This document shows, in pieces, positions 3,834-31,391 of a stretch of 32,000 bases of DNA; the stretch's first letter is position 1, and every line of letters begins with the position of its first letter. The stretch spans positions 3,180,001 through 3,212,000 of the forward strand of contig NC_014833.1 in the NCBI RefSeq assembly GCF_000179635.2. Direction: 5' to 3'. Position numbers and translations under genes: made by a program. The notes under the pieces were generated by a model that was given only the letters and a program-made list of their open reading frames with translations, ran no database searches and was not told the DNA's origin. The stretch is from Ruminococcus albus 7 = DSM 20455. Lineage in GTDB: Bacteria > Bacillota > Clostridia > Oscillospirales > Ruminococcaceae.

Positions 3834-4531
3834 TCGATGTCTTCTACGTCAACTATCTCTGTGTTTATCCTCATACTCTCCACAGTACCGCTCTTAACGG
3901 TGATTATCCTGTCAGCCATAGCCGCAAGGGCGGAGTTATGGGTGATAACTACCACTGTCATACCCCTTTTGCGGCAGGTATCCTGCAGAAGCTTCAATAC
4001 TGCCTTACCCGTGTTGTAGTCCAAAGCACCTGTAGGTTCATCGCAGAGCAGAAGTTTGGGATTTTTTGCCAGTGCCCTTGCAATAGCGACTCTCTGCTGT
4101 TCGCCGCCCGAAAGCTGTGCGGGAAAATTCTTCATTCTCTCCCCGAGACCTACCTGTTTCAGCACTTCTTCCGCATCGAGAGGCTCTTTGCATATCTGTG
4201 CTGCAAGTTCCACATTCTCCTTGGCGGTAAGGTTCTGCACCAGATTATAGAACTGGAAAACAAAACCGATATCATACCGTCTGTACGCAGTAAGCTCCTT
4301 TTTACCGAGAGTAGATATCTCCCTGCCATCCAGCTTCACGCTGCCCGAGGTCAGGGTATCCATACCGCCGAGGATATTGAGTATAGTGGTCTTGCCGGCA
4401 CCCGATGCCCCGACTATGACACAGAACTCACCCTTCTCTATCTCGAAAGAAGCATCCTTTATGGCGTGTATCTCCACCTCGCCTGTCTTATAGGTCTTTT
4501 TTACATTTTTGAATTCAACAAAAGCACTCAT
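3827..4531 (-). CDS. ABC transporter ATP-binding protein (MacB/LolD-like)
   Basis: Walker [13 protein letters not shown] signature [15 protein letters not shown], Walker [16 protein letters not shown] Shine-Dalgarno precedes ATG 4531. Confidence 0.9.
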
Positions 4532-6236: not shown

Positions 6237-6624
6237 AAGCAAAAACTCCTTCTTGCACAGAATAGTCAAAAACTATCCCAAAAATTTTCACTTAACATTA
6301 TACACTATATCCAAAACGCTGTCAATAGGAAAAATAAATTTCGGAAATGTGACTTATTTTGTTTAATTAAATATATGCAATTTGGCAATTCGGATATTAC
6401 ACCTATGATAACATCTGTGAAAAAACAACAATAGCGCCCTAAGACAGAAATCGCCGGAAGTTCACAGATGATATCCGTATCCTGCAGAAGCATAGGAAGT
6501 ACCCCTTGATATTTTAAGATCTTTCATGTAAAGATATGAATAAATAAAAGGATCGGATCCGATTTATGTACGCAGAGTATAAATTCAGCACAATATTTTG
6601 TGTAATATTTTCCTAATTAACCGC

Positions 6625-6653: not shown

Positions 6654-6740
6654 AAACATATAACATAAGCTGACATAGCAAAACCTGACCAGAGGTCAGC
6701 GTGAGCTTTGATAAAAAACCGGAAGAACGGAGCAAGTGCA

Positions 6741-13452: not shown

Positions 13453-14472
13453 GGTTATCCCTTTAACACACCACAGATAATTTACAATGCTGTCCAAATA
13501 AACAGACCTCAAAAACCGGAAAATATAGTATAATAGTGACAGGAAACGAAAGGAGCTGTCGCTATGTCAAAAAGATTTCCGAAACCTGAGATCACACTTG
13601 ATGGGATATATTCAAAGTTCGCAGATGAAAGCTTTTGCAAGGATTTTCTGCTTGATATCCGCTTTGAAAAGGGCTTTGCCTGCCCGTTTTGCGGTGGCTC
13701 TGAGTACCGCAGGATAAGGTCACGCCATCTGCTGCGCTGCAAGTTCTGTAAAGCAGATATATCCGCCACAAACGGAACTTTTATGCACAGAACACATATT
13801 CCGCTCAGACTGTGGATAGTCACCGCATTCCTCATTATGAGCAACAAATGCAGTGTTTCTGCTGTTACGCTGATGAGGTCTTTGGGGGTGACCTACAAGA
13901 CTGCATGGTACATCCTTCACCGCATCAGAAAAGCTATGAAATGCCGTGAAGAACGCTATTTGCTCGACGGAATCGTTGAACTTGATGACACGTATCTCGG
14001 TGCTCCGACTCACGGTAAAAAGCGCGGCAGAGGTACTGAAAAAGTCAAGATGATCGTAGCTTTATCGAAGAACGCAGCAGGAAATCCCGAGTACGTTAAA
14101 ATGAGAGATGTGCCGAATTTAAAGGGTATAACTGTGGGTAGATTTGCCAGGGATAATATCCGCGCTGGCTCGAAGATCGAGAGTGATAATGCTCGAAGTT
14201 ACAAGAAACCGTTGGCACAGAAATACTTCCATGTTTTTGAAACATATGATCCGACAAGCGGTCAGCTGAATTGGATGCATAAAGTTATATCAAACTTCAA
14301 AGCAATGATCATGGGAACTTACCACGGAAACGAAAAGATCCACACAGCGTTATATGCTGCCGAATACTGTTACAAATTCAACCGTCGTAAGCTGGGAAAC
14401 AGTGCGTATTTAAGGCTTTTGGCTGCTTTGGTGCAGTGATCTTACTTGTGGTGTGTTAAGGGGATAACCATA
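13450..14472 (+). mobile_element. IS1595-family insertion sequence (~1.02 kb) with 26-bp imperfect terminal inverted repeats and 8-bp TSD
   Basis: IRL 13450-13475 is cATGGTTATCCCtTTAACACACCACA; the rc of IRR 14447-14472 is tATGGTTATCCCcTTAACACACCACA (24/26 identical). The direct repeat TTATCTTT is at 13442-13449 and 14473-14480. There is a single transposase ORF. Confidence 0.85.
13564..14439 (+). CDS. IS1595-family DDE transposase with N-terminal zinc ribbon
   Basis: 291 aa. Zinc ribbon CPFCGG..17..CKFC, helix-turn-helix-like GVTYKTAWYILHRIRKAM, DDE-type motifs VELDDTY, IESDNARSY, AEYCYKFNRR. AAAGGAG lies 8 nt upstream of the ATG. Confidence 0.85.
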   Translation: MSKRFPKPEITLDGIYSKFADESFCKDFLLDIRFEKGFACPFCGGSEYRRIRSRHLLRCKFCKADISATNGTFMHRTHIPLRLWIVTAFLIMSNKCSVSAVTLMRSLGVTYKTAWYILHRIRKAMKCREERYLLDGIVELDDTYLGAPTHGKKRGRGTEKVKMIVALSKNAAGNPEYVKMRDVPNLKGITVGRFARDNIRAGSKIESDNARSYKKPLAQKYFHVFETYDPTSGQLNWMHKVISNFKAMIMGTYHGNEKIHTALYAAEYCYKFNRRKLGNSAYLRLLAALVQ

Positions 14473-15370: not shown

Positions 15371-16771
15371 TTATTCCAGCGTTATGGACTTCAGCTGAGG
15401 GGTGCCGCCGCCCTTGTAGGTCAGCCATATGGCATTTACGCCATCGGGTATGCTTACATCTGTGCCCGATGCAGTCCATACATTATTACCGACAACATTT
15501 ATCTCGCCCAGCACTTCGCCGTCCCATGCGGTCTTTATCTGGAATGTACCGTCGCCGTATGCACGGGTAGCTATGCTTATACGCTTTATGCCCTTGCAGT
15601 CGAAATACTTGAAACCGATGTTGGTGCCGTCGCAGATATTTGCAATATAGCCTATCTCCTCATCACCGTCTCTGCCGTCCTGCACTATACGCGGAGAATT
15701 GAGATCACCGATGTAGAGTTCTTTCTTCTCGGTGAACAGGTTGCAGGCGATATATGCGGGATATTCGCCCTTGCCCTCCAGAGGTCCTCCGTTGAGTCCG
15801 CATGAGGTGATCTCAACCTGCGGGAAACTTCCGTCCTCTTTCAGTGTCAGCTTCTCGGCACAGCCCTGACGCGAGAACCATGTGCCGTTGGTATGTCTGT
15901 GATAGAAGATATACCACTCGTCGTTTATCTCGATGATACTGCCATGATTGTTTGCGCCGCGGCAGGTGGGCATATCGGCGGGCTTGTATGTATCTATATG
16001 CAGGTCGGTATTGCTTACCAACACACCGCCGTACCTGAATCCCTCCATAGGGCTGTCGCTGACTGCGTAGCACAGTTCATGCATAACTTCCGATGAGTAT
16101 ACAAAATAGTAGTTGCCGTTCACCTTGCGTATGGAAGATGCTTCAAAGAATGCGTGTTCTTCCCACTGGGTGCCTGCGCTGTAACAGCTGCCAGGGGCAA
16201 TAAGTTTCGGTTCAGTGAGGACTGTCAGCATATCCTTATCAAGGGTAACTACCTTTGCGCCCGTGCGTGACTTGTCGCCTATACCGCAGAAACCGCTGTA
16301 CATATAGGTAACATCGCCCTCGGTGATAACACCGGGGTCAAACTGGGGTTCATCCCCCTCGCGTTCACCCAGACGTGTACCGTCTTTATAATGTACATAT
16401 CCGTAGAATTCGTACTTGCCCGCAGGTTCATCACATACCGCCACGGACATAACGCCCACCTTGTCAAGCACATAATATAAATAGTATCTGCCGTCGGGAC
16501 CCACCGTAACATCGGGGGCATAGAGGCACATATGACCGTCCTTGTTGAGAGGGTCGGCGTTTCGCGGATATATAACGCCCTCATATCTCCAGTTGCCAAG
16601 GTCGTTCACAGGTGTTGACCAGCAAACGTAGTCCCCCATGCAGAATACATAACCGTTCCAGAGATCGTGTGAACCGTATACATACACCCTGTCCCCGAAA
16701 ACATAGGGTTCTCCGTCGGGTATGTACTCCCAGCTGGGAAGATAAGGATTAAATGCCTGTTTTTTGCTCAT
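15371..16771 (-). CDS. glycoside hydrolase family 43 (beta-xylosidase/alpha-L-arabinofuranosidase type) with C-terminal CBM6-like module
   Basis: 466 aa with the N-terminal NPYLPSWEYIPDGEPYVFGDRVYVYGSHD typical of GH43, and a C-terminal beta-sandwich-like ~130 aa. AGGAGG lies 7 nt upstream of the ATG, 13 nt after the esterase stop. Confidence 0.8.
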   Translation of the reverse strand: MSKKQAFNPYLPSWEYIPDGEPYVFGDRVYVYGSHDLWNGYVFCMGDYVCWSTPVNDLGNWRYEGVIYPRNADPLNKDGHMCLYAPDVTVGPDGRYYLYYVLDKVGVMSVAVCDEPAGKYEFYGYVHYKDGTRLGEREGDEPQFDPGVITEGDVTYMYSGFCGIGDKSRTGAKVVTLDKDMLTVLTEPKLIAPGSCYSAGTQWEEHAFFEASSIRKVNGNYYFVYSSEVMHELCYAVSDSPMEGFRYGGVLVSNTDLHIDTYKPADMPTCRGANNHGSIIEINDEWYIFYHRHTNGTWFSRQGCAEKLTLKEDGSFPQVEITSCGLNGGPLEGKGEYPAYIACNLFTEKKELYIGDLNSPRIVQDGRDGDEEIGYIANICDGTNIGFKYFDCKGIKRISIATRAYGDGTFQIKTAWDGEVLGEINVVGNNVWTASGTDVSIPDGVNAIWLTYKGGGTPQLKSITLE

Positions 16772-16784
16772 GTGATATCCTCCT

Positions 16785-18271
16785 TCATTTTACATGGTCA
16801 AGCAAAAATTTAGTATACGAACTGTTTTCAACTCCTGCCACAGCACCGTCTGAGGTGAACTCCATCTCGGCGCGGTCAGCATCGGTATAGCATCTCCATT
16901 CGTGAAGCTTGTTTCCGTTGATGTCATATCCGTTAGGGTCGCCTGTCTTTATGAAATTTGCCCAGTAATCACACATCTGTCTTGCGAGATCGTAGTGCCT
17001 GCCTTCAAAAGGTCTGGTATCCTTAGCCAGTGTCTCAAAGAAGAACCAGAGGTCAACGGAATGGAAAGTACCCGGGTGATCGTCACCTGGGATATCGGGA
17101 ACAAAGCGGTAATAGTAACATGGCTTTGCATCAGCCATTCTGCTTTCCGCAAGAAATGCAGCTTTCACACCCATTTCGGGGGCAGATACAGGGGCATAGC
17201 CCTGTCCGTATTGTATATGAGCCTCGGGATAAGACAGAAATTCTTCAGCGGAATCACCGAAATACTTCTCTGCCAGTTCCTTCAGCCGATCTTCATTTTC
17301 TGCATGGATGAACTCAAAAAACTCATCGCCGGTATTGCCCGCCATAACAGGCACACGACTGCGTGTTCCGTCACAGAATCCTTCAAGAGGATCGCCTGTG
17401 CAGAAGATCCCGTCATTTACTATGGTGAACATCATGCCCTTATTTATCATCCGATCACTGTAAGTGCGGCGTATAAACTGCGCATCCAGCTTTCTCGCCT
17501 CTTCAAGGGTCTTGACCCCCAGTTCATCAAACAGCATTACACCCAGCTTTTCAGCATCTCTCAGAGTACGGGGTATAAAGAATTCATTTCTCACATAAGG
17601 GTTCTTGAAAAGTCCGCTCATCATCACAGCCTTTTGGAAATCGCCTTCGTTGCTCTTGCTTGCCATCTGCGCCATTACACCGCCGCCGCCTGCGGATTGT
17701 CCTGCAATAGTGATATTATCAGGGTCGCCGCCGAAATTTGCGATATTCCTCCGAACCCATCTGAGTCCTGCCTGCTGATCCAGCGGACCGAAATTACACG
17801 GAGCATCGGGCTGCTCTGCCGTAAGCTGAGGGTGTGCAAGGTAGCCCAAAGCCCCCAGTCTGTAATTCACCGTAACAACTACTATTCCGCGCCTTGCCAG
17901 CCTTTCGCCGTCAAACTCCATCTCAGCGGTATATCCCCACTGAAATGCACCGCCGAAATACCATACAAGTACAGGCATCTTCTCATCGCCTGTCTTTGCG
18001 TTCGTCCATATATTAAGATACAGGCAGTCCTCACCCATGGGTATATCGGGGTCTACGTGCCATTCGCGGCAGTATATATCATCACCGATATAGGCGCATA
18101 CTCAAAGCAATCGCGGGTACCCTCCCAGTTCTCACAGGGCTGAGGTGCTCTCCAGCGGTTCTCACCTACAGGCGGAGCCGCAAACGGTATTCCCTTAAAG
18201 GATGTTATCCTCGGGTCAGCCGCAGGCAATCCACGTACCTTGCCGTTTTCGGTATTAGTTATCCTCAACAT
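16785..18271 (-). pseudogene. type-B carboxylesterase (para-nitrobenzyl esterase-like) split by a frameshift
   Basis: The two track ORFs (18271-18053 and 18038-16785) are the N- and C-terminal parts of one esterase: GIPFAAPPVGENRWRAP.. then ..EDCLYLNIW.., nucleophile elbow GQSAGG. The frames overlap at 18052-18104. The likely 1-nt lesion is near 18084-18090, at the conserved ..YAPIC.. position. Confidence 0.75.
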
Positions 18272-19986: not shown

Positions 19987-20016
19987 TTGACATTAATAAA
20001 CTTAATGCGATATAAT
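19987..20016 (+). promoter_or_regulatory. sigma-70-like promoter of the toxin gene
   Basis: TTGACA, 18 nt, TATAAT. This places the transcription start near 20023 and supports the downstream ATG 20076 as the real start. Confidence 0.55.
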
Positions 20017-20075
20017 ATTGGATGTCTATTTTTGTAAATCTAATGGATTTACATACTATGAAAGGAGTCGTGTTA

Positions 20076-23000
20076 ATGAACACAATACCCAAGCGCAAAC
20101 CAACAAATAAGTTGATTGCTATGGTGCTTGCCATAACAATGACCTGCGTTTATGTGGTCGGAGATAACTATGCTCCGATTGTCGCAGAGAAAAGCAAGCC
20201 CAAATCAACTAATTTGTTAACCCAAACACTTGATTACAGTACAGACTTGTTCCCAAATACGGAACTCAGGGATGTTAGTGAACTTGTGTTGGCAGAGAAT
20301 ACGACATATATGGGCAAAGCGAGTCAATCACTGGCCGAAGCATTTGCTAATATGCCGGAGAACGTGGAGTCAAGTGAGGAACTTGAGAAAAGCGTTGCTG
20401 ATTTCAGCAAACAGATCTCAGAGCTAAAAGCTCGTACTCTTGATGAATTAAGGGGGAGCGACAATGGCTCAGCTGATTTTTCTGAATATCAGAACACCGT
20501 CGTATCAGGTTACAATGATCTTGAGGAATTACTGTCAAATGTTACTGTTGAAAATTATGAAACAGTAATGGCAGATATTTCAGCTTTGATCAATCCTGAA
20601 AAACCTTATGTTTCACTTGCTGATGATCTACCGTTTAACGATATTTCGGAAGATAATATCACCTATTCAACATATAATCCCGAATCAGTTACCAATTATC
20701 AGATTGATGACGACAGTTATTCAAGCAATGATCTTCAGCAGACAAACGATACTATAATTAATGATGATGTAAGGACTGAATTTGCTGATTTTGAGAGTGT
20801 GCTTGAAGTATATCAGTACATCAAAAACAACTACATGATGGAGTTCTATTTCGGCTCACGAAAGGGTGCTGTCGGTGCTTCTGCTGAAAAAGCCGGAAAT
20901 GACTATGATATAGCCAGCCTCCTGATCGGTGTACTTCGTGACAGGAATATCCCTGCACGATATGCGACAGGAGAAATTGAGATCACAGCTAAACAGGCCA
21001 TGGAATGGACTGCTACAGATGACATCAATGTAGCTATACGCTCAATTGCTGCTCTTGGAATCCCAACTACGGGAATGATCTCTAACGGTGAAACAGTTGC
21101 GGTCAGATTAGAGCATACATGGGTCGAAGCATATGTTCCTTATACGGATTATCGAGGAACAGGTAATCGTTCCGGCGAACGCCTTTGGATTCCGCTTGAT
21201 GCTTCTTTCAAGAAAGCAACACATCTTGACGGTAATGACCTTGAGACAATTAACGCTTATATGAGCGATGAATCAAATTATCTCAATGAAAATTCAGTTA
21301 TCAATGGAGTAAGTGTTTCAACCATAGCGAAATTGGTTGATGGCAAGGAATCGGCTTTTGTAAAGTATATGCTTGAAAACGGTTATGATTCTGTTGCTCA
21401 GGTTTTCGGTGGCAAAGAGATAATCTATGAAGATTTAGGATATTTACCGCTTTCACTGCCGTATAATAACGCTTCTGATACAGAGAGATATGACGATATC
21501 CCTCTTGATTACACTGATACCATCAACTTTAAGCTGTTTGGTAATTCGGCTTCGGGAAACAGTATCTATGGTGATGATTATATCAATAAAACCATTTATG
21601 CACCTGATGTTTACGGAAAAAGACTCACATTAACTTATGTTCCTGCAACACAGGCTGATAGTGATGTTATTTCAGAATATGGTAGTATTTTCTCAACTCC
21701 GACATATCTCGTCAAAATGAAACCTCAATTTGTTATTGATGGAGAAGTTATAGCTGAAGGTGGTGTATGTAATACAGGTTACACCCAAAAATACATTATT
21801 ACCCTTGGCAATAAAGCTTCCAGTCAGAATAACAGCGAAATAACAAATAATGTAACTGTTGGCGGAATGTATTCCATCGTTTTAGATTACGGTCATGTTT
21901 CTGAGATAGAATTAAATAATGTAAAATCTGTAGTCGATAATTTCTCCTCTAAAATGACGGAAGATAATTGCTATAACGAAAGTTACATGGGTGAAATGCT
22001 GTATGCAATAGGTAAACTTTATTTCTCTCAGCTTGATACATATAATGAAGTCGTTGCAGGTGTTCACAATGTTACAGCTACACGTTCCCTAAGCTTGGGA
22101 ATAATCGGCTTTAATGCTAACGTTACTTATACGTTTGGCGTTCCTTCCGAATTAAAGGAAGGCGGAGTGTTCCTTGATATCGGACACGATGTACATTGTG
22201 TTGTTTCAAATGATAATAGTAATGAATCTGAAAAGAAGTTCATGCTTGAAGCAGGTATGTATGCTTCTGCGATGGAACATGGTATTTTAGAGCAAGTTAC
22301 AGGAGTTGAATCTGTTTCAACTATAAAAGCGTTGCAGTATGCACAACAGAATAGTATTCCGATCCACTATATCACTAAGGAAAATCTTGATAGCGAAGTT
22401 GCACAGCTTACTTTATCTGATCATTTGATCAGTGATATCCGTTCTTCGGTTAATTCAGGAAAGATCATTATAATTCCTGAACGCGAAATAACAATACACC
22501 AGTGGACTGGCGTTGGCTATATGGTGCTTGATCCTGATACATGCGCTTGCGGATACATGATTTCAGGTGGAATGGCTGGCGGTGCTATGGCTTGGTGGGA
22601 AGTTCTTCTTAATACTGCAATAAACGTATTAGATGGTATTTGTATCGGACTAATGTGTTTAGACCTTGTTATCGCATTTCACGTGTTATTTTATCCGATG
22701 ATTATATTTGGTTGTGTGATGTCTTTTGTAGCAGGATATAGTATTGGAACTCATTTGTATAATGCTTTTTCAGGTGATGAATTTAATGTACGTGAATTCC
22801 AGGAAGCTATGATCGAACTCGCATCATTTGGTTTAACTATATGGGCTTTTGAAGGTTTAGATAAATGGATGGAGACTCCATCAGGCGAAGGTACCGGCGG
22901 AAGAACTCCTTCAGGTGAAGGAACAGAGGGTGGTAATCCAACTGGCGAAGGCACCGGAGGAAGAACTCCAGCTGGCGAAGGAACAGAAGGTGGTAATCCA

Positions 23001-23993
23001 GCCGGTGAAGGCACCGGAGGAAGAACTCCTGCTGGCGAAGGCACAGAAGGTGGTAATCCAAACGGTGAAGGCACGGGAGGAAAGACTCCTGCTGGTGAAA
23101 ATACAGAAGGAAAGAATACCATTGAACAGGCAAACGAAGAAGCTGGTAAAGCAAAGGGTGGAGCTTGCTTTATTGCTGGCACATTAATATCTACTTCATG
23201 TGGATACACTCCGATAGAGTGTATTAAAGCTGGAGATATTGTTAAGAGTTTTGACCCGGCAACGTTAAAAGTATCCAATCAGGTAGTTGAAGAAACTTTC
23301 GTTCGTCAAATTGATGAGTTGATAAAGATTTCTGTTAATGGTGAGATCATTTCTACTACTCCTGATCATCCGTTCTATGTTGCGCAAAAGGGATTTGTTG
23401 ATGCGGTAAAATTAAGAGCAGGCGATATTCTTATTACTGTTAATGGTGAATATGCCGTTATTACAATGATTCAGCATGAAATTTTAGAATCTTCTGTTGA
23501 CGTGTTTAATTTCAGAGTCTCTAATAATCACACTTACTTTGTTGGTGACAATGGAATTGGTGTTCATAATAATGATTGTGCAGAACCTAACAGTAAAATC
23601 GGAGGAAAAACTACAGCTAAAGATTGGGAAGGTAAAACCTCCGAACTGGCAAAAGAATCTCCTATTGAAATACCTGAAAATGTAGAAGGGAACATCAAAC
23701 ATAAAAATGGTTACGATCAGATTGAGTATAAATGGAGTACCGATGCGTACAAATATGAAGTAAGATGGCATACCCGTACTCCAGGTGCTCCTGAAGGTAA
23801 GGGTAATTCATGGGTAGTTACTAGAGTTACACGTGGTACACCCACAGGTCAAAGTAGAGTAACTCATATTTTGGTTGGTGAAGAATGGGTTCCTCGTTTC
23901 AAATGGCAAGCCGCAATTGATGCGTATCACGATGGCACTGCTTCAATTAGTCAATTAGAAATGTTAGATTTAGGACATGTGCCAGCACCATGA
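20076..23993 (+). CDS. polymorphic-toxin-like protein: N-terminal TM anchor, transglutaminase-like (Cys-less) core, large beta-rich region, hydrophobic helices, GEGT repeats, Hint domain, C-terminal toxin tip
   Basis: AAAGGAG lies 8 nt upstream of ATG 20076 (the track start 20022 would fall at or upstream of the predicted transcription start, ~20023). TM LIAMVLAITMTCVYVVG. TGase-like GNDYDIASLLIGVLRDRNIPARYATG .. EHTWVEAYV .. WIPLDAS. Hint motifs CFIAGT, TPDHPF, GVHNN. See findings. Confidence 0.85.
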   Translation: MNTIPKRKPTNKLIAMVLAITMTCVYVVGDNYAPIVAEKSKPKSTNLLTQTLDYSTDLFPNTELRDVSELVLAENTTYMGKASQSLAEAFANMPENVESSEELEKSVADFSKQISELKARTLDELRGSDNGSADFSEYQNTVVSGYNDLEELLSNVTVENYETVMADISALINPEKPYVSLADDLPFNDISEDNITYSTYNPESVTNYQIDDDSYSSNDLQQTNDTIINDDVRTEFADFESVLEVYQYIKNNYMMEFYFGSRKGAVGASAEKAGNDYDIASLLIGVLRDRNIPARYATGEIEITAKQAMEWTATDDINVAIRSIAALGIPTTGMISNGETVAVRLEHTWVEAYVPYTDYRGTGNRSGERLWIPLDASFKKATHLDGNDLETINAYMSDESNYLNENSVINGVSVSTIAKLVDGKESAFVKYMLENGYDSVAQVFGGKEIIYEDLGYLPLSLPYNNASDTERYDDIPLDYTDTINFKLFGNSASGNSIYGDDYINKTIYAPDVYGKRLTLTYVPATQADSDVISEYGSIFSTPTYLVKMKPQFVIDGEVIAEGGVCNTGYTQKYIITLGNKASSQNNSEITNNVTVGGMYSIVLDYGHVSEIELNNVKSVVDNFSSKMTEDNCYNESYMGEMLYAIGKLYFSQLDTYNEVVAGVHNVTATRSLSLGIIGFNANVTYTFGVPSELKEGGVFLDIGHDVHCVVSNDNSNESEKKFMLEAGMYASAMEHGILEQVTGVESVSTIKALQYAQQNSIPIHYITKENLDSEVAQLTLSDHLISDIRSSVNSGKIIIIPEREITIHQWTGVGYMVLDPDTCACGYMISGGMAGGAMAWWEVLLNTAINVLDGICIGLMCLDLVIAFHVLFYPMIIFGCVMSFVAGYSIGTHLYNAFSGDEFNVREFQEAMIELASFGLTIWAFEGLDKWMETPSGEGTGGRTPSGEGTEGGNPTGEGTGGRTPAGEGTEGGNPAGEGTGGRTPAGEGTEGGNPNGEGTGGKTPAGENTEGKNTIEQANEEAGKAKGGACFIAGTLISTSCGYTPIECIKAGDIVKSFDPATLKVSNQVVEETFVRQIDELIKISVNGEIISTTPDHPFYVAQKGFVDAVKLRAGDILITVNGEYAVITMIQHEILESSVDVFNFRVSNNHTYFVGDNGIGVHNNDCAEPNSKIGGKTTAKDWEGKTSELAKESPIEIPENVEGNIKHKNGYDQIEYKWSTDAYKYEVRWHTRTPGAPEGKGNSWVVTRVTRGTPTGQSRVTHILVGEEWVPRFKWQAAIDAYHDGTASISQLEMLDLGHVPAP
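22875..23117 (+). repeat. in-frame tandem repeat, 4 x 60 nt (20-aa unit TPxGEGTEGGNPxGEGTGGR)
   Basis: Read directly: TPSGEGTGGR TPSGEGTEGGN PTGEGTGGR TPAGEGTEGGN PAGEGTGGR TPAGEGTEGGN PNGEGTGGK TPAGENTEGKN. This stretch is more GC-rich than the surrounding gene. Confidence 0.9.
23166..23573 (+). other. Hint (pre-toxin HINT / bacterial intein-like) domain
   Basis: Begins at Cys codon 23166-23168 (block A CFIAGTLIS), block B TPDHPF (TxxH), and ends GIGVHNN (His-Asn at 23565-23570). About 135 aa with no endonuclease insert. Confidence 0.8.
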
Positions 23994-24160
23994 TAGATTA
24001 CACTTAGGAGGATTAATATATGAATCTTATAAAAATGGGAATAATGATATTGACAACACATTTTGTTTTATTGATGTCAATTTTATGTGGTACTGCTTCA
24101 ATTAGTCAATTAGAAATGCTAGATTTAGGATGTGAGCCAACACCATGATAGATTACACTT
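23937..24160 (+). repeat. direct repeat A/A' (69 nt each): toxin 3' end plus the first 16 nt of the immunity gene
   Basis: A is 23937-24005 and A' is 24092-24160, with about 6 mismatches. A encodes ..TASISQLEMLDLGHVPAP*; A' encodes ..TASISQLEMLDLGCEPTP*. Both end in ATGATAGATTACACTT. Confidence 0.9.
24020..24148 (+). CDS. 42-aa chimeric ORF (signal-peptide-like head of the 1416-aa protein fused to the last 18 residues of a toxin allele)
   Basis: Below the ORF-track size cut-off. AGGAGG lies 8 nt upstream of ATG 24020. Sequence: MNLIKMGIMILTTHFVLLMSILCG-TASISQLEMLDLGCEPTP*. Its TGA (24146-24148) overlaps the immunity ATG (24145) as ATGA. Expression is unproven. Confidence 0.4.
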   Translation: MNLIKMGIMILTTHFVLLMSILCGTASISQLEMLDLGCEPTP

Positions 24161-24504
24161 TTTATTCAAGGTTTGAGGGTGAACCTGAAATTCGATTTAT
24201 AGCCAAAAAATGTAATAATGAATGTGCAATTGCTTTATGGGAAGGTTATTTTGATAGGATAATGTCTTTAATTTATCCTGAACCAACAGGCTGGACTGGT
24301 ATAGCTTATATTTATCATATGTATATTGGTTGGTATGATGATGAAATTTGGGAACTTAAAGATATACGGGATGCTTATCATAAATTCACATCTATTAACA
24401 TTGCTGATTTAGATGAAATGAGTCAAAAAGTGTTGGTTATTATCTGCGCATTTTTGAAATTGGCAATAGAAGATGGTTATAAAGTATTCATAAGTAGATT
24501 ATAA
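24145..24504 (+). CDS. putative cognate immunity protein (small cytoplasmic protein; possibly barstar-like)
   Basis: 119 aa with no signal peptide, immediately 3' of the toxin tip. It has no strong SD of its own, and its start overlaps the preceding stop (ATGA). ALWE motif at residues 30-33; C-terminus LAIEDGYKVFISRL. Confidence 0.65.
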   Translation: MIDYTFYSRFEGEPEIRFIAKKCNNECAIALWEGYFDRIMSLIYPEPTGWTGIAYIYHMYIGWYDDEIWELKDIRDAYHKFTSINIADLDEMSQKVLVIICAFLKLAIEDGYKVFISRL

Positions 24505-24656
24505 AATAGTTTTTCTACAAAAACTGTTTTATATACATCTGAATCTAAAAAATAAACAACATAGCATTAACGAAACGTAATACTTTGCTTACTTAAATTA
24601 TTCTGTTTATTTTGACTTCATAGATTTAGGTCAACAACAATTAGGAGGATTAATAT

Positions 24657-27600
24657 ATGAATCTTTTAAAAAGAGGAATAGCGATATTGACAACCCATTT
24701 TGTTTTATCGATGTCAATTCATTGTGGAGCTATTTCTCACGACCCTATAAATCCTGTTAAGTCTTTTGATGAATTAATCGACAACTCTTTAATTTATTTT
24801 AGTAAAACTCAAAATTATGAGAATGCGTGGGTCAAAAATAATCGAGACTACACTTCAGAAATAATTAATACATTGGAATATATATATACCAATGTTAATT
24901 TCATAAATGATAATCAAATCATGTTTTTGAAAATGATGGTCAATGATTCCGCCGATTATATATGGGAAAATGACTATAATAATATCGATGATGTAGCTAA
25001 ATATCTACTTGTAGATGAAATCGTCGATGATAGTGCTATTACTTGGATTTTATCCATTCAAAACCCCGACGGAGGCTTCGGTCTTGACGAAGGCTACACC
25101 AGCGACATCATCGACACAAAGCTGGCATTAAAGGCTTTGACCGATATAGGTGAGACCGAAGCAATGACAAATGCCGCGCTTTACATAGCATCACTGCAAA
25201 ATGAGGACGGTGGCTTTAGCTATCAGCAGGGATTAAGCTCTAATGCTTATCTTACTGCCGACATCGCTAATATCCTTGTTGACACAATAGATGTCAATCC
25301 AGTGCTGTCATACTATCTTGAAGATACTTTTAAAGCACTCGATGGCTATCTTGATACAACGTTTCCGGCCTTGAAGGATCTTTCGGCATATGACCTTGAT
25401 ACAGTGTATCAGCACTTCTATTCTGCACTGTACAGTCTGAAAAGGGATGGCCGCTATGATGTATCCGCATACTATGCTTTACAGGCAGAAGATGGCGGAG
25501 TGTTTGATGATCCTTTGGCTACGGCACTTTACCTTGAGCTGCTTGTAAGAGAGCAGAATGCACTGGTAGCTAATATTGATAATATCGCTATCACCAATTA
25601 TAAGGGCTACGCTGTGTCAGCTTTCAACTCAAACGAAAACGTCAATATCAGCGTTATCAATGAGTTTGAAACCAATAAGGCACATTTTGAAATGTCAATC
25701 ATTAAGCCTGACGGTACAGCTATTCCTCTTGATGGCGATAAAGCAGTATGGAATACTGCGGAAAATCCTGATGGAGAGTATACTGTTCGTGCTGAGATAA
25801 TTCGCGACTCAAATGATGAGGTTGCAAAGTCATTTGAACAGACTTTCAGAATTCAGCATCGTTTAGCAGTTGATAGCATTACACTTGCTTTGAGTCAGCC
25901 TTATTCAAGAGTTGGTGATACTGATCCTGTTGATGTTACAGCAGAATTTGATATCAGCAACTTTACAGAGGATGATCAGCTTTCTATCAACTGGACAGTT
26001 ACTGATGTTTCAGGTACTGTGATTTCCGAAGATACAGTTGATATTACCGAAGCCGATGTGGCTATGAACTACATTCAGCTTGGCAGCTTTACTCCCGATA
26101 CCTCTGAAAGAAATGCATATATCATCAAAGCAGAGCTTATGTCAGGAGAAAACCAGATCGCTCAGACTACTACAAACTACTTTGTATCTGACAAGAGCGT
26201 TGCCATAACCTACTCTACTGACAAGGACTACCTTACAGAGATAGATGATAATGCAGAAGTAACATTAAATCTGCGTGATGAAAGGGTCGTTGACCTTATA
26301 TTCACAACCTCATCTGAGAATACTGATCTTATCGACAAATATGCTGCAGAAATCGAAACGATCAAGGATAAGCTTGAAAGCATGGGATATATTGTAAATC
26401 TCAGCAATGTTTCAACATCATTCCTTTCTGCGAAAGACGCTCATGAATGGATAGAATATGATCACCCAGGATATGATACACAAACCGGATATACAAAACA
26501 TATTGTATCTGATAAAACGAATATTCAGATGCTTGGATATCGTTATGTACCGTATAAGGATTTCCTGTTTGTTCCTGATGAGAATGATTCACAGAAGATA
26601 TTTACCTTCGATATTCAGAGGGATAAGACTGACTGGCATAGTATGAACGGAGGTGGCTTCCTCTTTAATACCGAGATTGATTCAGAAGCAAATACGATTA
26701 GCGGATATTATGTTCTCATTATGCGTGATGGATTGAGATTATATGAATTAGATAAGGTGAATCTCGATACATTCAGAAACAATGGCTATGCCGGAAAAGC
26801 AATCCAGAAATTCCAATTTAAAGATGTTTATGCGGAACATCACATTAAGATCGTTGCAAACAGCGACACTGTTTCCCTATGGGATGGCGATGACATTGTG
26901 ATCGATAACGCAGAGCTTCCTAATATCCACGGTAATGGCTATGGACCGATCACCAGTCATGCAAGTCATAGTTGTAGTCAGAGATCATATTTTACATTTG
27001 CAAATATTACAATGCAGACCATCAAGGGCGAAAAGCTCCTGAATGTTCTTGATAATTACAATTTTGAAAGTGACAATAGCAGATATGTTATAAGCCTTAG
27101 TGATACTCCCATCGAAGATCTTGATGATGAGGAAGTACAGAAAAATGTTGCGCAGAAGATTGTTGATAAGAACATAACATTTATCGGACTTGGCGATGAA
27201 GACTCTACGGAACAGTATCGGCGTATAGCTCAGCTTATCCCGGACAATGCTTCTTTCTATGAGTATTCAGATAAAACCGCAGTCAATACAATTAAGAAAA
27301 ATATCATTGATACAGAAGAAGCTAAACGAATTCTGAATCCTGATGCTGTTGTAGCAACAGACCTTACTATAACTGGTGAACTGCCTGACGGCTCATCTTT
27401 TGTTCAGCAGTATGATAAACTACATGAAGGTGAGACTATCAGCTTTGTAGTACCCGTTGATTTGAATAATCTGACATCGGGTATTGATGCTATACTTTTA
27501 AAGAACATCAGACTTGATTATACTGATGAAAACAACATCGCAAGAGTCAAGACACTTGATAAGATAACACTTCCTGTTATTGGCTCTGAAGGAAAGATCA

Positions 27601-28907
27601 CCAATCAGGTCACAACTGATAAAGAGGCATACTACGAATATGAAGACGTAAATATCTTCGATAGAATACACAATAATTCTGACATCAGAGCTGCAAAGGG
27701 ACTTACAAATGTAATTACCATCGCGGATTCTGAGGGCAATGTAATCACAGAATACTCTAAAACTCTTAGTGAGATCATGACAAAAAGCTATGTCGAGGTT
27801 TCAGAGATATGGAATATTGCAGATCAGCCCGAAGGACAGTATACTATAATTTCCAATGTTTACGATGGTGACATATTGGTGTCTGAAAGCCAGGCTGTTT
27901 TCGAAGTAATGAATCATGAACTGCCACAGTATGAGCTGACAGGTTATCTGAATACATCAGGTAAGCTGTTTAAGGCTGATGAGACTATTGATATAACCAG
28001 ATATATCGAAAATATTGGAAGATACGATATTGAAAATGGAACGATCAATATCAAGATCATAGACGTAGCACATGAAAAGGTAGTCTATGAAAGAGAAGAA
28101 GTTATTGACCTCTCCATTGGAGAAAACAATACAGATTCATTCAGTGTTGTTCCTGCAAATGATTTCACTTCAAGAGGCGGTAAGGAATACCTTATCACTT
28201 ATGAAGTAACAACAGAGAACGGTCAGACAATTGAATTACCGGGCGATGGCTTTATGCTTGACGGCTTTGATTTCTCATTTATGGGAGTCGACGTTCTGTT
28301 TTCTATGAATGATGATGCGTCAATAAAGGGTATTCAGATGAACGGCTGGCTTATGAATGTATACGGCAGTATGCACTCAAATTCCAATGTTGAAGCAAAC
28401 TGCTCTATTATTACAGTCGAAGGTGATTGTTCATCAGTATCAGGAGCACAGTTCAATACTTGGCAGACACTGCTTGAAAATGATCCGATCACTTCTGAGT
28501 TTATTGAATTCCCTGATGTACTGAGTGTAATTAAATCGAGATTAGAGGAAACAATACTCAGCATTGAAAACGGCTGGACAAGTGAGAACGAAAATGAATT
28601 CAGGATCTACGGAAACAGTGTTGTAGCTGACTCTGATATATTCAGCAGTAAATCCCTGATCATTGATCCCAGCAACTGCTTTGCTTCATCATCCGATGAA
28701 GGTATCCTTATTTGCAGTGAAAAAGATATAACTATCAGGTCAACTGATGTGGATATCAAGGGTATTATCTATGCTCCAAACGGAACAGTAAGGATCGAAT
28801 CAAACAACTTCAATATTCACGGAAGGATCATTGCTAAGAATATCATATTCCAGGGTAGTATCTTTAATGGTGAAACATTTGATCGAGATTTGAACCAGTT
28901 TAATTAA
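24657..28907 (+). CDS. 1416-aa secreted multidomain protein: prenyltransferase/terpene-cyclase-like (alpha/alpha toroid) repeats, Ig-like modules, lectin-like insert, beta-helix-like C-terminus
   Basis: AGGAGG SD. Signal-peptide-like MNLLKRGIAILTTHFVLSMSIHCGA. Three QNxDGGF-type repeats (SIQNPDGGFG, SLQNEDGGFS, LQAEDGGVF) lie at about 25050-25515. The C-terminus is ..IKGIIYAPNGTVRIESNNFNIHGRIIAKNIIFQGS.. Confidence 0.8.
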   Translation: MNLLKRGIAILTTHFVLSMSIHCGAISHDPINPVKSFDELIDNSLIYFSKTQNYENAWVKNNRDYTSEIINTLEYIYTNVNFINDNQIMFLKMMVNDSADYIWENDYNNIDDVAKYLLVDEIVDDSAITWILSIQNPDGGFGLDEGYTSDIIDTKLALKALTDIGETEAMTNAALYIASLQNEDGGFSYQQGLSSNAYLTADIANILVDTIDVNPVLSYYLEDTFKALDGYLDTTFPALKDLSAYDLDTVYQHFYSALYSLKRDGRYDVSAYYALQAEDGGVFDDPLATALYLELLVREQNALVANIDNIAITNYKGYAVSAFNSNENVNISVINEFETNKAHFEMSIIKPDGTAIPLDGDKAVWNTAENPDGEYTVRAEIIRDSNDEVAKSFEQTFRIQHRLAVDSITLALSQPYSRVGDTDPVDVTAEFDISNFTEDDQLSINWTVTDVSGTVISEDTVDITEADVAMNYIQLGSFTPDTSERNAYIIKAELMSGENQIAQTTTNYFVSDKSVAITYSTDKDYLTEIDDNAEVTLNLRDERVVDLIFTTSSENTDLIDKYAAEIETIKDKLESMGYIVNLSNVSTSFLSAKDAHEWIEYDHPGYDTQTGYTKHIVSDKTNIQMLGYRYVPYKDFLFVPDENDSQKIFTFDIQRDKTDWHSMNGGGFLFNTEIDSEANTISGYYVLIMRDGLRLYELDKVNLDTFRNNGYAGKAIQKFQFKDVYAEHHIKIVANSDTVSLWDGDDIVIDNAELPNIHGNGYGPITSHASHSCSQRSYFTFANITMQTIKGEKLLNVLDNYNFESDNSRYVISLSDTPIEDLDDEEVQKNVAQKIVDKNITFIGLGDEDSTEQYRRIAQLIPDNASFYEYSDKTAVNTIKKNIIDTEEAKRILNPDAVVATDLTITGELPDGSSFVQQYDKLHEGETISFVVPVDLNNLTSGIDAILLKNIRLDYTDENNIARVKTLDKITLPVIGSEGKITNQVTTDKEAYYEYEDVNIFDRIHNNSDIRAAKGLTNVITIADSEGNVITEYSKTLSEIMTKSYVEVSEIWNIADQPEGQYTIISNVYDGDILVSESQAVFEVMNHELPQYELTGYLNTSGKLFKADETIDITRYIENIGRYDIENGTINIKIIDVAHEKVVYEREEVIDLSIGENNTDSFSVVPANDFTSRGGKEYLITYEVTTENGQTIELPGDGFMLDGFDFSFMGVDVLFSMNDDASIKGIQMNGWLMNVYGSMHSNSNVEANCSIITVEGDCSSVSGAQFNTWQTLLENDPITSEFIEFPDVLSVIKSRLEETILSIENGWTSENENEFRIYGNSVVADSDIFSSKSLIIDPSNCFASSSDEGILICSEKDITIRSTDVDIKGIIYAPNGTVRIESNNFNIHGRIIAKNIIFQGSIFNGETFDRDLNQFN

Positions 28908-28937
28908 CGGTAGACTACAAATAATAAATGACCTACT

Positions 28938-28975: not shown

Positions 28976-29158
28976 ATACGTAAGCGTATAACCCCCAGCA
29001 CCTACCCCACCGAAGTCTAATAAAGTATAATAAACTCCAAGGAACACCATGAAGTAAATTGAATAATCCAAATTGATCCATGGAGTTCATTGGAGACGAT
29101 TAGACAAGGAGGTAACAGGTATGGACAAAACAACATCCATCACAACAATCAAAAAGAA

Positions 29159-29437
29159 ATGCAGCTTCAGGAATGGTCTGCGCAGATCAAAGCACAGCAG
29201 GCAAGCGGTCTGACGATCCGGGAATGGTGCAAAGAAAAAGGGATCAAGCCAAACACGTATTACAACCGCCTAAGAAAAGTTCGTGAAAAGTATATCGAAA
29301 ATTCTCCGACCATCGTTCCTGTATCAGTTCCTTGCTCAAACGAAAATATCCGCATTGAGAAAAACGGACTTCAAATATCTCTTCCGGCAGATATATCTGC
29401 GGACACTCTGACCGCTTTGGTGCATGAGCTATGCTGA
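29159..29437 (+). CDS. tnpA: IS66 accessory protein TnpA (OrfA), conservative start
   Basis: ..EWSAQIKAQQASGLTIREWCKEKGIKPNTYYNRLRKV.. is a typical IS66 OrfA HTH. ATG 29159 has no SD. A strong SD plus ATG at 29121 is in the +1 frame relative to this ORF (see finding). The track start at 29090 is a TTG. Confidence 0.7.
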   Translation: MQLQEWSAQIKAQQASGLTIREWCKEKGIKPNTYYNRLRKVREKYIENSPTIVPVSVPCSNENIRIEKNGLQISLPADISADTLTALVHELC

Positions 29438-29787
29438 ATGATCTGGCAGCGGACGCACAGGTCTATCTTGTTACGGGATACACCGACCTTCGACGCGGGA
29501 TAGACGGACTTGCGACTATCGTTCAGGCTCAGCTTCGACTTGACCCGTTCTCGAAAGCATTGTTTTTGTTCTGCGGCAGACGTTGTGACCGCATCAAAGG
29601 TCTGCTGTGGGAGGGCGATGGTTTTCTGCTGTTGTACAAGCGCCTTGACAACGGAAGATTCCAGTGGCCGCGCAGTGAGACCGAAGCAGTAATGCTCACA
29701 TCTCAGCAAATTCGCTGGCTTCTGGAAGGCTTGAAAATAGAGCAGCCGAAGGCTATCCGTGAGGGAAAGCCGGGGGCGCTGTATTAA
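29431..29787 (+). CDS. tnpB: IS66 TnpB (Orf2)
   Basis: ..VYLVTGYTDLRRGIDGLATIV......LFLFCGRRCDRIKGLLWEGDGFLLLYKRLDNGRFQWP.. is the IS66 Orf2 signature. It overlaps the tnpA stop by 7 nt. Confidence 0.9.
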   Translation: MLNDLAADAQVYLVTGYTDLRRGIDGLATIVQAQLRLDPFSKALFLFCGRRCDRIKGLLWEGDGFLLLYKRLDNGRFQWPRSETEAVMLTSQQIRWLLEGLKIEQPKAIREGKPGALY

Positions 29788-29879
29788 GGCAATACTTACC
29801 GAATATTCAGAATATGTGCTTGAAAAGCCCCTCTTTTCGTGGTATCATTAAAGTATCATCACGAACGGAGGGGTGCTTT

Positions 29880-31391
29880 ATGTCCGAACCAAATATGACA
29901 TCGGAAATTGTATCGCTCCGTAATGAAAACGCTGTTCTCAAGGAAGAACTAGCACTTGCCAATCAGCAGTTAGCGTGGTTCAGAAAGCAGATATTCGGAA
30001 GAAAAACAGAGCAGACATCTGTTGTTATGGAAAAGGAGTTCGGTGTTCAGCTTTCCATGTTCGGAAACAATGAAGAAAAATCCGCAGCTAAATCTGCCGA
30101 AACAATTACTGTTCCCGAACACAAGCGCAAGAAAAAACGCACTCACGATGAATGGATGAACAATCTGCCTGTAAAAGAAGAACATCACAAAATTGACAAC
30201 CCGGTATGCGAAATATGCGGCGCCGAAATGGAAGAACTGACTCCCGAAAAGGCTTACGATGAACTTATATTTACGCCGCCAAAATATCATATCCGCAGGC
30301 ATATAGTACATAAGTACAAGTGTCCCGAGTGCGGAGAAAAGCCCGAAGAAAGGGACGAACCTTGTCATATCATCCGTGCGCCATATCCTCACGCTATGAT
30401 CCCGGGAAGCTATTGCTCTCCCGAACTTCTGGCTCATATCATCTACGAAAAATATGCAAAGTCAGTACCTCTGCACCGTCAGGAAAAGGACTTTAATTCC
30501 AAAAACATACCTCTGCTCAAAGCGACTATGTCTAATTGGGTAGGCACTGCTGCCGAAAAATGGTGTTTGCCGATTGTGGAGAAAATGCATGAGACGCTTA
30601 TCGCAGGGCAGATGATCCATGCCGATGAAACGACCGTTCAGGTGCTTCACGAGGAAGGCCGAAAGCCTACCACGACATCAAGAATGTGGGTCTACTGCAA
30701 CGGCAAAATGAATGACAGGAGCATCATCATTTTCGATTATCAGCCGACACGAAAGGGTGAGCACGCCTCGAATTTCCTGAAAGGATTTATCGGCTATCTT
30801 ATCTGTGACGGATACGATGCCTACAATGCAGTCGAGGGTGCTAAGCGATGCGGCTGTATGACTCATGCAAGGCGTGGTTTTATTCAGGCTCTTCCGAACG
30901 ACCAAAAGCTGCACAGCACTTCTGTTGCGGCAAAGGCAGTAGAATATTTCAACAAGATATATCACGAAGAAAATCTGCTTGCCGACAGCTCCACAGAATA
31001 CAGATATAAACAGCGCCTTGTGAAGGTAAAGCCTTTGCTTGACGAGTTTTTTGCGTGGCTTGAAAATGTTCAGGTCAGTGGTAAGGGCAAGCTGACAGAT
31101 GCAGTAAGATATGCGTTGAATGAACGGAAATATCTTTACACGTTTCTTGAAAACGGAGACGTGCCTATCGACAACAACAGAGCCGAAAACGCAATAAGAC
31201 CGTTTGCGTTAGGCCGAAAAAATTGGCTGTTTTCAAATACAGCAAACGGAGCCAGATCAAGTGCAACGCTGTATTCGATCATTTCAACTGCACAGGCGAA
31301 CGGTGTTGATGCTGAGAAATACCTGACCGAGCTGTTTTCACAGCCTGCGGGGACGATATTATTACCATGGAGGGAAGAAAATGAAACTTAG
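29880..31391 (+). CDS. tnpC: IS66-family DDE transposase TnpC
   Basis: GGAGGGG SD upstream of ATG 29880. N-terminal leucine zipper (LRNENAVLKEELALANQQLAWFRKQIFGRKTE), zinc finger CEICGAEM...CPECGEK, catalytic core IHADETTVQVL, C-terminal NNRAENAIRPFALGRKNWLF. Confidence 0.9.
   Translation: MSEPNMTSEIVSLRNENAVLKEELALANQQLAWFRKQIFGRKTEQTSVVMEKEFGVQLSMFGNNEEKSAAKSAETITVPEHKRKKKRTHDEWMNNLPVKEEHHKIDNPVCEICGAEMEELTPEKAYDELIFTPPKYHIRRHIVHKYKCPECGEKPEERDEPCHIIRAPYPHAMIPGSYCSPELLAHIIYEKYAKSVPLHRQEKDFNSKNIPLLKATMSNWVGTAAEKWCLPIVEKMHETLIAGQMIHADETTVQVLHEEGRKPTTTSRMWVYCNGKMNDRSIIIFDYQPTRKGEHASNFLKGFIGYLICDGYDAYNAVEGAKRCGCMTHARRGFIQALPNDQKLHSTSVAAKAVEYFNKIYHEENLLADSSTEYRYKQRLVKVKPLLDEFFAWLENVQVSGKGKLTDAVRYALNERKYLYTFLENGDVPIDNNRAENAIRPFALGRKNWLFSNTANGARSSATLYSIISTAQANGVDAEKYLTELFSQPAGTILLPWREENET

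Follow-up and report, generated by a model that had tools for sequence, protein, structure and literature searches.

To our knowledge, the antagonism known among Gram-positive gut and rumen anaerobes is almost confined to toxins of the T7SS/LXG kind (T7SS, type VII secretion system) and to small bacteriocins. The locus described here lies in Ruminococcus albus 7, in a stretch of 32,000 nucleotides (contig NC_014833.1, positions 3,180,001 to 3,212,000; hereafter the window, in whose coordinates all positions are given), and is probably an interbacterial toxin module of three genes, with the toxin carrier first, the immunity gene next and the partner last. Its closest described relatives are to be sought among the Sec-dependent polymorphic toxins that bear inactive N-terminal transglutaminase modules, which section 19 of Zhang et al. 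2012 (PMC3482391) suggested might act as anchors by binding peptides, and, in terms of logic rather than descent, among the umbrella toxins of Streptomyces and the CdiA/CdiB pairs of contact-dependent inhibition (CDI). The three genes are:

20076 to 23993, plus strand: toxin-carrier gene, 1305 residues (ADU23311.1 / WP_013499425.1)
24145 to 24504, plus strand: candidate immunity gene, 119 residues, no signal peptide
24657 to 28907, plus strand: conserved partner gene, 1416 residues, secreted product (ADU23314.1)

Within the carrier, whose residues are counted from the Met at 20076, we distinguish the following segments:

20076 to 20159, plus strand: N-terminal signal peptide or signal anchor by hydropathy, residues 1-28
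20772 to 21203, plus strand: transglutaminase-like domain, residues 233-376 (Pfam Transglut_core, PF01841)
21207 to 22586, plus strand: uncharacterised conserved core domain, residues 378-837, mixed alpha/beta
22587 to 22871, plus strand: hydrophobic helical region, residues 838-932, two long hydrophobic helices and one amphipathic helix
22877 to 23110, plus strand: Gly/Glu/Thr/Pro low-complexity linker repeat, a 60-nucleotide tandem repeat in 3.9 copies
23166 to 23570, plus strand: PT-HINT (bacterial intein-like, BIL) domain, residues 1031-1165, with Cys1031 and a terminal His-Asn
23571 to 23993, plus strand: variable toxin tip, residues 1166-1305 (140 residues), distantly Ntox30-like

An original prediction, made from the sequence of the window, had assigned these elements to an open reading frame (ORF) at 20076-23993, and with small corrections all of them are present there. 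It had also called the delivery scaffold undescribed, which is only partly right: NCBI already names the product 'polymorphic toxin-type HINT domain-containing protein' and inactive transglutaminase modules were noted in 2012, but that description concerns proteins with RHS repeats. The class of Zhang et al. 2012 resembles the carrier in having a signal peptide or transmembrane (TM) segment followed by a transglutaminase fold in which catalytic residues are missing (in the carrier, Cys is replaced by Asp) and, as set out in that section, in its variable C-terminal toxins, its downstream immunity gene and the use of HINT among its releasing peptidases. According to the same section, however, these proteins 'always' have RHS repeats after the transglutaminase, sometimes with immunoglobulin (Ig) domains, and the transglutaminase follows directly upon the signal or TM segment, whereas the carrier has no RHS repeats and places about 200 acidic residues between the TM segment and the transglutaminase. 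What the carrier has in their place is a novel domain of about 460 residues, the invariant motif GYMISGG, helices of hydrophobic character and a linker of low complexity, and it is accompanied by a partner gene, of which that section reports none. No RHS/YD match was obtained at E<=0.1 over the whole carrier, nor at E<=10 over residues 378-935, and the claim that the protein carries no LXG/WXG100, RHS, two-partner secretion (TPS), PAAR or MafB module was confirmed with Pfam and NCBIfam. Iyer et al. 2011 refer to this association of transglutaminases with polymorphic toxins in one table entry, and the supplement text of Zhang et al. 2012 mentions neither R. albus nor the transglutaminase architecture. 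Literature searches on transglutaminase together with polymorphic toxin, Firmicutes or contact-dependent terms returned only these 2011-2012 mentions from the Aravind group, and neither the core domain nor the GYMISGG-helix junction nor the partner gene is described in any paper that we found.

By analogy of logic, the nearest characterised system is the Streptomyces umbrella toxin (Umb; Zhao et al. 2024, Nature 629:165; PDB 8W20/8W22), which likewise belongs to Gram-positive bacteria, relies on the general secretion pathway and ends in a HINT domain and a variable toxin. Umb also employs a catalytically repurposed protease fold as a protein-protein module, as the carrier may do, and the lectin-type domains of its accessory proteins vary greatly and are believed to pick the target; the variable domains of the partner can be likened to them. 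UmbC1 (PDB 8W20) is the second-best PDB sequence match of the carrier, via HINT only; outside HINT there is no relationship in sequence or fold. UmbC uses ALF repeats and a coiled-coil stalk and UmbA a trypsin fold, whereas the carrier combines a fold of transglutaminase type with a novel core and helices that are hydrophobic. The partner is a single protein of about 1400 residues, unlike the Umb accessory proteins, and Umb particles are soluble whereas the carrier looks membrane-anchored. The CdiA/CdiB systems are alike in logic, with a large carrier presented at the surface, an exchangeable toxin and immunity cassette, a linked partner and, at related loci, orphan cassettes and immunity arrays, and tips of CdiA type (CdiA_C and CDI_toxin_EC869_like) occur on the scaffold described here. 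They are Gram-negative, however, whereas the carrier host is a monoderm, and the carrier has no TPS domain, filamentous haemagglutinin (FHA) repeats, VENN motif or Omp85 partner; CdiB is a transporter, whereas the present partner is secreted, has several domains and resembles adhesins.

The identification of the carrier locus as a module of polymorphic toxin and immunity gene, with a HINT domain for processing, is well supported and in our view very likely correct. The homologue survey that the original prediction had called for, carried out on 205 scored carrier homologues, revealed the expected pattern, with conservation over some 840-970 N-terminal residues and variation in the last ~140 residues and in the downstream gene. 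The closest homologues are 75-90% identical over residues 1 to ~840-970 and about 50-60% identical over HINT, and their alignment stops at carrier residues ~1165-1212. Among the scored homologues the tip is shared only with P0093, in which it is 48% identical, compared with 33% for the scaffold. Scans of representative tails verified at least 14 Pfam toxin families as tips on this scaffold, including Toxin-deaminase and XOO_2897-deam; Ntox28, Ntox30 and Ntox35; WHH/Colicin-DNase, AHH, Endonuclea_NS_2 and Tox-REase-3; Colicin_E5 and EndoU (EndoU_bacteria); CDI_toxin_EC869_like and CdiA_C; and TNT.

The tip of the window protein belongs to an unannotated family that appears to be distantly related to Ntox30, a predicted RNase family. 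Its match to Pfam Ntox30 (PF15532) is weak (E 0.003, 18.1 bits, under the 25-bit cut-off), and Ntox30 is also weakly matched by 16 of 27 tip relatives, at best with E 1.4e-4, and by the related tip of P0055 (E 1e-4). Ntox30 is described in Table 2 of Zhang et al. 2012 (PMC3482391) as an all-beta, predicted metal-independent endo-RNase with RxH and R...THIP motifs; the tip contains RWH and (R)VTHIL. An AlphaFold2 model of the tip, with a predicted local distance difference test score (pLDDT) of 91.5, consists of six beta strands and two C-terminal helices, and a Foldseek search with this model against the PDB gave no fold match (best E 0.08). The relatives of the tip are mostly short unannotated proteins or orphan cassettes, and have in common the motifs GYDQI.YKW, Y.YEVRWHT.TPGAP and GHW.

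Downstream of the tip, the 119-residue ORF lacks a signal sequence and matches no family in Pfam or NCBIfam. The original prediction had taken it for a small immunity gene, a view favoured by the finding that its homologues directly follow the same tip family at locus L093 (E 1.5e-26) and, at L094 (E 5.6e-12), in an array of orphan cassettes, while relatives with other tips (L095, L007) have unrelated genes downstream of the tip. The gene co-varies with the tip in independent contexts. Arrays of immunity genes are also present at related loci: eight tandem UCP033725 genes of about 151 residues stand behind a 1379-residue scaffold homologue at L012 (14146-19297), a mixed array at L093 (11711-17900) includes CdiI_4 and SUKH/SMI1_KNR4 immunity genes, and L094 contains a long series of small ORFs of orphan tip or immunity size. 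Such arrays are typical of polymorphic toxin systems.

Comparison at the DNA level delimits what is exchanged. Homology with relatives that are 80-90% identical across the scaffold gene stops about 13-20 nucleotides past HINT. Identity of the window to the metagenomic locus L095 is 90% over the segment that starts at 20030 and includes the linker, and 88% across HINT as far as 23583; positions 23584 to 25057 cannot be aligned, and from 25058 to 28911 identity resumes at 87%. The boundaries with L007, at 23590 and 25051, match these. Because the two loci give matching boundaries, the exchangeable cassette runs from the tip over the immunity gene into the partner gene, of which it includes the first ~133 codons (about 400 nucleotides), so that the partner signal peptide and first ~130 residues swap along with tip and immunity gene. 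The partner N-terminus may be included in the cassette as a recombination arm or because it must be functionally matched. The L095 module itself sits between two phage-type integrase genes (2714-3925 and 15778-16914), together with Abi_2 and AAA_25 genes. A further trace of exchange lies between the toxin and immunity genes:

24000 to 24160, plus strand: recombination scar, containing a 42-residue chimeric ORF at 24020-24148

The toxin stop overlaps a truncated immunity start (ATGATAGATTACACTT). The first part of the scar (24000-24099) is an 85% identical copy of the partner ribosome-binding site and first 24 codons, and the second (24088-24160) is an in-frame, 92% identical copy of the last 18 toxin codons and the immunity start, after which the intact immunity gene follows. 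This looks like the footprint of a cassette duplication or exchange; the 42-residue ORF is called in six of six R. albus contigs examined.

The HINT domain proposed in the original prediction is well defined. It matches PT-HINT (PF07591) over residues 1037-1166 (E 6e-25, 88.5 bits against a cut-off of 27.7) and, at E 1.4e-34, aligns over its full length, Cys1 position and terminal His-Asn included, with PDB 2LWY, a solved BIL domain from Clostridium thermocellum; Cys1031 and His1164-Asn1165 are intact. This likeness covers only the 135-residue processing module and not the scaffold. The residue at position +1 after HINT is Asn, which by established intein and BIL chemistry permits cleavage and not splicing.

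Ahead of HINT, the scaffold begins with a KRK-rich n-region MNTIPKRKPTNK and, by hydropathy, a 16-residue hydrophobic stretch, followed by an acidic region (residues ~45-232) that matches nothing. The transglutaminase-like domain recognised in the original prediction scores above the Pfam cut-off (E 5e-10, 40 bits against 23). Its catalytic Cys is replaced by Asp (GNDYD), while the His (EHTWVE) and Asp (WIPLD) are kept, leaving the Cys-His-Asp triad incomplete; the GND replacement is found throughout the family, distant phyla included, with the His and Asp mostly retained. The next segment had been described as a beta-rich domain of about 450 residues. A conserved domain of some 460 residues does exist, but in an AlphaFold2 model built from 48 homologues (mean pLDDT 83.7) it is mixed alpha/beta (strand 32%, helix 33%). 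Neither Pfam nor NCBIfam has a model that matches it, and a Foldseek search with the model found nothing significant in the PDB (best E 0.02, TM<0.1) or BFVD (best E 0.019). The core ends in a beta-hairpin bearing the motif [GA]YM[IL]SGGxxGG (residues 826-836, nucleotides 22551-22583), which is nearly invariant from Ruminococcus to Nitrospirota. We considered and rejected a GAIN/MAIN-type autoproteolytic domain before the anchor: GAIN folds are cleaved at an HX(S/T) motif that lies in the final beta-hairpin ahead of the anchor (bioRxiv 10.64898/2026.05.12.724683), a motif that the GYMISGG hairpin lacks, and there was no fold match, GAIN entries being absent from the listed Foldseek PDB matches of the core (best E 0.02).

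Of the two or three hydrophobic helices that had been proposed to follow, two are hydrophobic (residues 840-867 and 869-898) and, after a short 'GD' turn, the third (905-932) is amphipathic and falls below TM hydrophobicity. The region includes a hydrophobic stretch of about 50 residues with KD19 values up to 2.3. For this hydrophobic 'TGD' region, PT-TG and other Pfam pre-toxin domains were rejected, as none matched even at E<=10. The GEGT repeats of the original prediction correspond to the genuine tandem repeat in the linker (residues ~935-1030), which has 33 Gly, 15 Glu and 14 Thr among 96 residues. Gram-positive surface proteins have Pro/Gly/Thr-rich wall-spanning segments, which this linker resembles.

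The scaffold extends far beyond Ruminococcus. When clusters at 50% identity were searched with the core domain alone, 3527 of their representatives matched at E<=1e-3; the number falls to 2330 at E<=1e-10 and to 592 at E<=1e-30. Matches in genomes include Bacillota, Nitrospirota, Desulfobacterota (Geobacter, Smithella), Chloroflexota and Actinomycetes. With 205 homologues and 2330 core cluster representatives, the elements listed for the carrier are not a chance pattern. Hydrophobic segments follow the motif in 156 of the 157 members that extend at least 250 residues past it, and by hydropathy estimates they number two in 12 members, three in 87, four in 48 and five in 9. Outside the toxin-bearing clades of Bacillota, the protein often ends just past two to four hydrophobic helices (L058, L071, L074, L076). 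In a metagenome-assembled genome (MAG) of Geobacter sp. (L060, 8711-11857), an NlpC/P60 domain stands past GYMISGG in place of the hydrophobic helices and nuclease, indicating that the C-terminal cargo position is also used by cell-wall-acting domains outside Bacillota.

The partner gene, which the original prediction had missed, is the most informative feature of the locus. Its product is annotated as 'Prenyltransferase/squalene oxidase' and has a signal sequence, an N-terminal alpha/alpha-toroid (prenyltransferase/SQHop-cyclase/TED-like), Ig-like domains and a DUF7305-like C-terminus, the toroid being suggested by weak Prenyltrans and SQHop_cyclase matches and by PDB 7xqz (E 5.5e-7). A homologue of about 1417 residues follows the toxin and immunity genes in one Oscillospiraceae MAG and one Lachnospiraceae MAG, and in Bacilli a homologue of about 1556 residues (toroid and VWA) lies immediately upstream, overlapping the start of the scaffold gene; the Clostridia and Bacilli types are homologous (blastp E 1e-20 to 1e-27). 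We scanned 80 genome loci encoding the core domain with a hidden Markov model made from five partners, and found an adjacent partner on the same strand in 64 (upstream in 44, downstream in 18 and on both sides in 2). About 11 of the 16 loci apparently lacking a partner are cut by contig ends, and L076 is a false negative of the scan, its partner overlapping the scaffold start by 156 nucleotides; such overlap with the start codon of the scaffold gene is frequent. The scaffold gene is thus genetically coupled to the partner across Bacillota and beyond, and the identities of partner and scaffold fall in step (82/79%, 55/53% and 23/34%).

The domains of the partner vary by lineage, and include VWA (Bacilli, R. 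hungatei), a beta-propeller (Pelotomaculum), an L-type lectin/LamG domain (L093) and, in Geobacter, IgGFc-binding and Glucodextranase_B domains, with weak matches to MG2, CARDB, PKD and WxLIP_HBD-type Ig domains. In some clades the partner also has a sortase-type SPKTG signal or a TM anchor at its C-terminus, and the partner in the R. albus clade has a signal sequence without an anchor. Covalent capture through a thioester in the TED-like toroid was rejected, the CxEQ motif being absent from five partners.

Taken together, we moderately favour a Sec-exported, membrane-tethered toxin carrier that acts with an adhesin-like partner, and a surface-anchored presentation or release device is plausible. 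The carrier would be exported by Sec and held in the producer membrane by its N-terminal anchor, by the helical hairpin after GYMISGG, or by both; the helices can be postulated to act as an anchor because toxin-less family members end right behind two to four of them. The Gly/Glu/Thr/Pro linker of about 95 residues would let the HINT-toxin unit span the cell wall, while the catalytically dead transglutaminase fold and the core domain would form an ectodomain that docks the secreted partner, whose lineage-variable VWA, lectin, beta-propeller or Ig modules may bind the target-cell surface. HINT chemistry (a thioester at Cys1031 and cyclisation of Asn1165) would then cut the tip loose, allowing it to enter a neighbouring cell and degrade RNA, and the cytoplasmic 119-residue protein would guard the producer and its kin.

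Several points weigh against this proposal. Toxicity, secretion, cleavage, topology and a physical contact between scaffold and partner are all predictions from sequence, and the Ntox30 assignment lies below the Pfam cut-off (18.1 against 25 bits). The membrane side on which the toxin resides is ambiguous, because homologues have two to five hydrophobic segments past the motif and an odd number of membrane segments would leave the toxin cytoplasmic; in addition, the first hydrophobic helix contains several Asp, Glu and Asn residues. HINT is missing from many toxin-bearing homologues (for example P0043 and P0099), and HINT-mediated release is therefore not essential to the scaffold. Finally, because diderm members lack toxin tips, the ancestral role of scaffold and partner may have been unrelated to toxins.

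A broader and more tentative proposal is that the carrier and its toroid/adhesin partner constitute an unrecognised, widespread two-protein apparatus for toxin presentation and delivery in monoderms, comparable, on the Gram-positive side, to two-partner CDI or to umbrella particles. The core and the invariant GYMISGG-helix junction would anchor, release or translocate the toxin, the partner would select the target, and cassettes would recombine between HINT and the partner gene.

It is conceivable, though on balance unlikely, that the carrier gives rise to a released, diffusible, bacteriocin-like toxin, with its signal peptide cleaved and the whole protein or a HINT-cleaved fragment leaving the cell; the helical hairpin would then be an element for insertion into or translocation across the target membrane, like the hairpin buried in the diphtheria-toxin T domain or in colicin pore domains, and would take the adjacent cargo with it, and the partner would serve in receptor binding within a soluble particle, as in the Streptomyces umbrella toxins. 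All identified tips (nucleases, deaminases, an NADase) act in the cytoplasm and so need a membrane-crossing device, and the helices stand just N-terminal to the cargo, are moderately hydrophobic and have charged residues in helix 1. Their variable number also suits a helical bundle better than a fixed topology, the R. albus partner is unanchored, and the umbrella toxins are a precedent for secreted HINT-toxin carriers with lectin-bearing partners. However, Sec would normally integrate a hydrophobic stretch of this length and hydropathy (~50 residues, KD19 up to 2.3) into the membrane, homologues that end directly past the helices resemble membrane-anchored proteins, and the Gly/Pro/Thr-rich linker resembles a wall-spanning tether.

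We regard as improbable the suggestion that scaffold and partner are primarily a cell-envelope or adhesion module, for example one that organises a large surface protein, to which toxin tips are merely appended and from which, past HINT release, delivery depends on the entry properties of the tip itself. Most sampled members from Bacillota carry toxins of many families, and 156 of the 157 members with long extensions have helices and then cargo. A Geobacter member has NlpC/P60 as cargo, and the cassette of the R. albus clade includes the 5' end of the partner gene, tying the partner to the toxin locus. These observations must be set against the many members in Nitrospirota, Desulfobacterota, Chloroflexota and Actinomycetes that keep the partner without a toxin-sized C-terminal extension, the adhesin and wall-anchor features of partners (SPKTG, VWA, lectin, Ig), and the peptide-binding anchoring role that section 19 of Zhang et al. 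2012 proposed for inactive transglutaminases. Highly improbable is a toxin segment kept in the producer cytoplasm by an odd number of membrane passes and exported or transferred only upon a signal sensed by the ectodomain-partner complex: three segments are the commonest number (87/157) and are also reached in the window protein if amphipathic helix 905-932 is counted, and the immunity protein is cytoplasmic, but no translocation machinery is encoded nearby, that third helix is under TM hydrophobicity, members with two, four or five segments also occur, and wall-spanning-type linkers would be pointless in the cytoplasm.

The scaffold family is large and carries at least 14 toxin families, yet we found no domain model, no structural relative in the PDB or BFVD and no descriptive paper for it. 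If the carrier and its partner are indeed a delivery device, they would amount to a major means of killing between bacteria that has been overlooked in Clostridia and Bacilli, to a new way for proteins to cross the envelope of Gram-positive bacteria, and to a supply of toxin-immunity cassettes that can be exchanged. Because R. albus 7 can be cultured, the system is directly testable.

With regard to the gene model, the mechanically called ORF opens at 20022, and we assign the start of the carrier to the ATG at 20076, which has the following upstream signals:

19987 to 20016, plus strand: sigma-70-type promoter-like site, TTGACA-18 nucleotides-TATAAT, matching 12 of 12 consensus positions (a consensus match only)
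20061 to 20067, plus strand: ribosome-binding site AAAGGAG, read from the sequence, 8 nucleotides before the ATG at 20076

The ATG at 20022 was rejected because the promoter-like site places it at about the transcription start, and it has no ribosome-binding site; the 1305-residue product is also predicted by gene callers. The G+C content of the module as a whole (~0.37-0.40) lies below that of the flanking genes (0.45-0.47), with 0.30 in the immunity ORF, 0.35-0.45 in the toxin and partner genes and 0.54 in the repeat linker. Other secretion-system genes, T7SS included, are absent from the window, and none of the carrier, immunity and partner proteins matches a PADLOC defence model. Mobile elements flank the module: IS66-family genes lie directly downstream of the partner (29090-31391), with a 525-residue transposase at 29814-31391 and two small ORFs before it, and an IS1595-type transposase is encoded upstream at 13564-14439. 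Shorter R. albus 7 proteins (ADU21078.1, ADU21080.1 and WP_157865482.1; 115, 792 and 1328 residues) share 90%-identity clusters with the toxin and partner, which points to another, possibly degraded, copy of the module in the same genome, outside the window.

The remainder of the window contains several genes of separate interest. An ABC transporter pair at its left end (417-4531, minus strand), consisting of a 1138-residue FtsX/MacB-type permease and a 234-residue ATPase, has no evident connection to the toxin module. A MoxR-like AAA_5 ATPase gene (4713-6269, minus strand) is divergent from a gene for a 793-residue protein with VWA and bacterial TSP3 repeats (6708-9089, plus strand); the pair recalls MoxR-vWA conflict or sensing systems and, as far as examined, has no tie to the toxin locus. 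A carboxylesterase (COesterase) gene (16785-18271, minus strand) is split into a 72-residue N-terminal ORF (18053-18271) and a 417-residue ORF (16785-18038), a probable frameshift or pseudogene; because the strain assembly L001 has the identical split, it is probably not a sequencing error.

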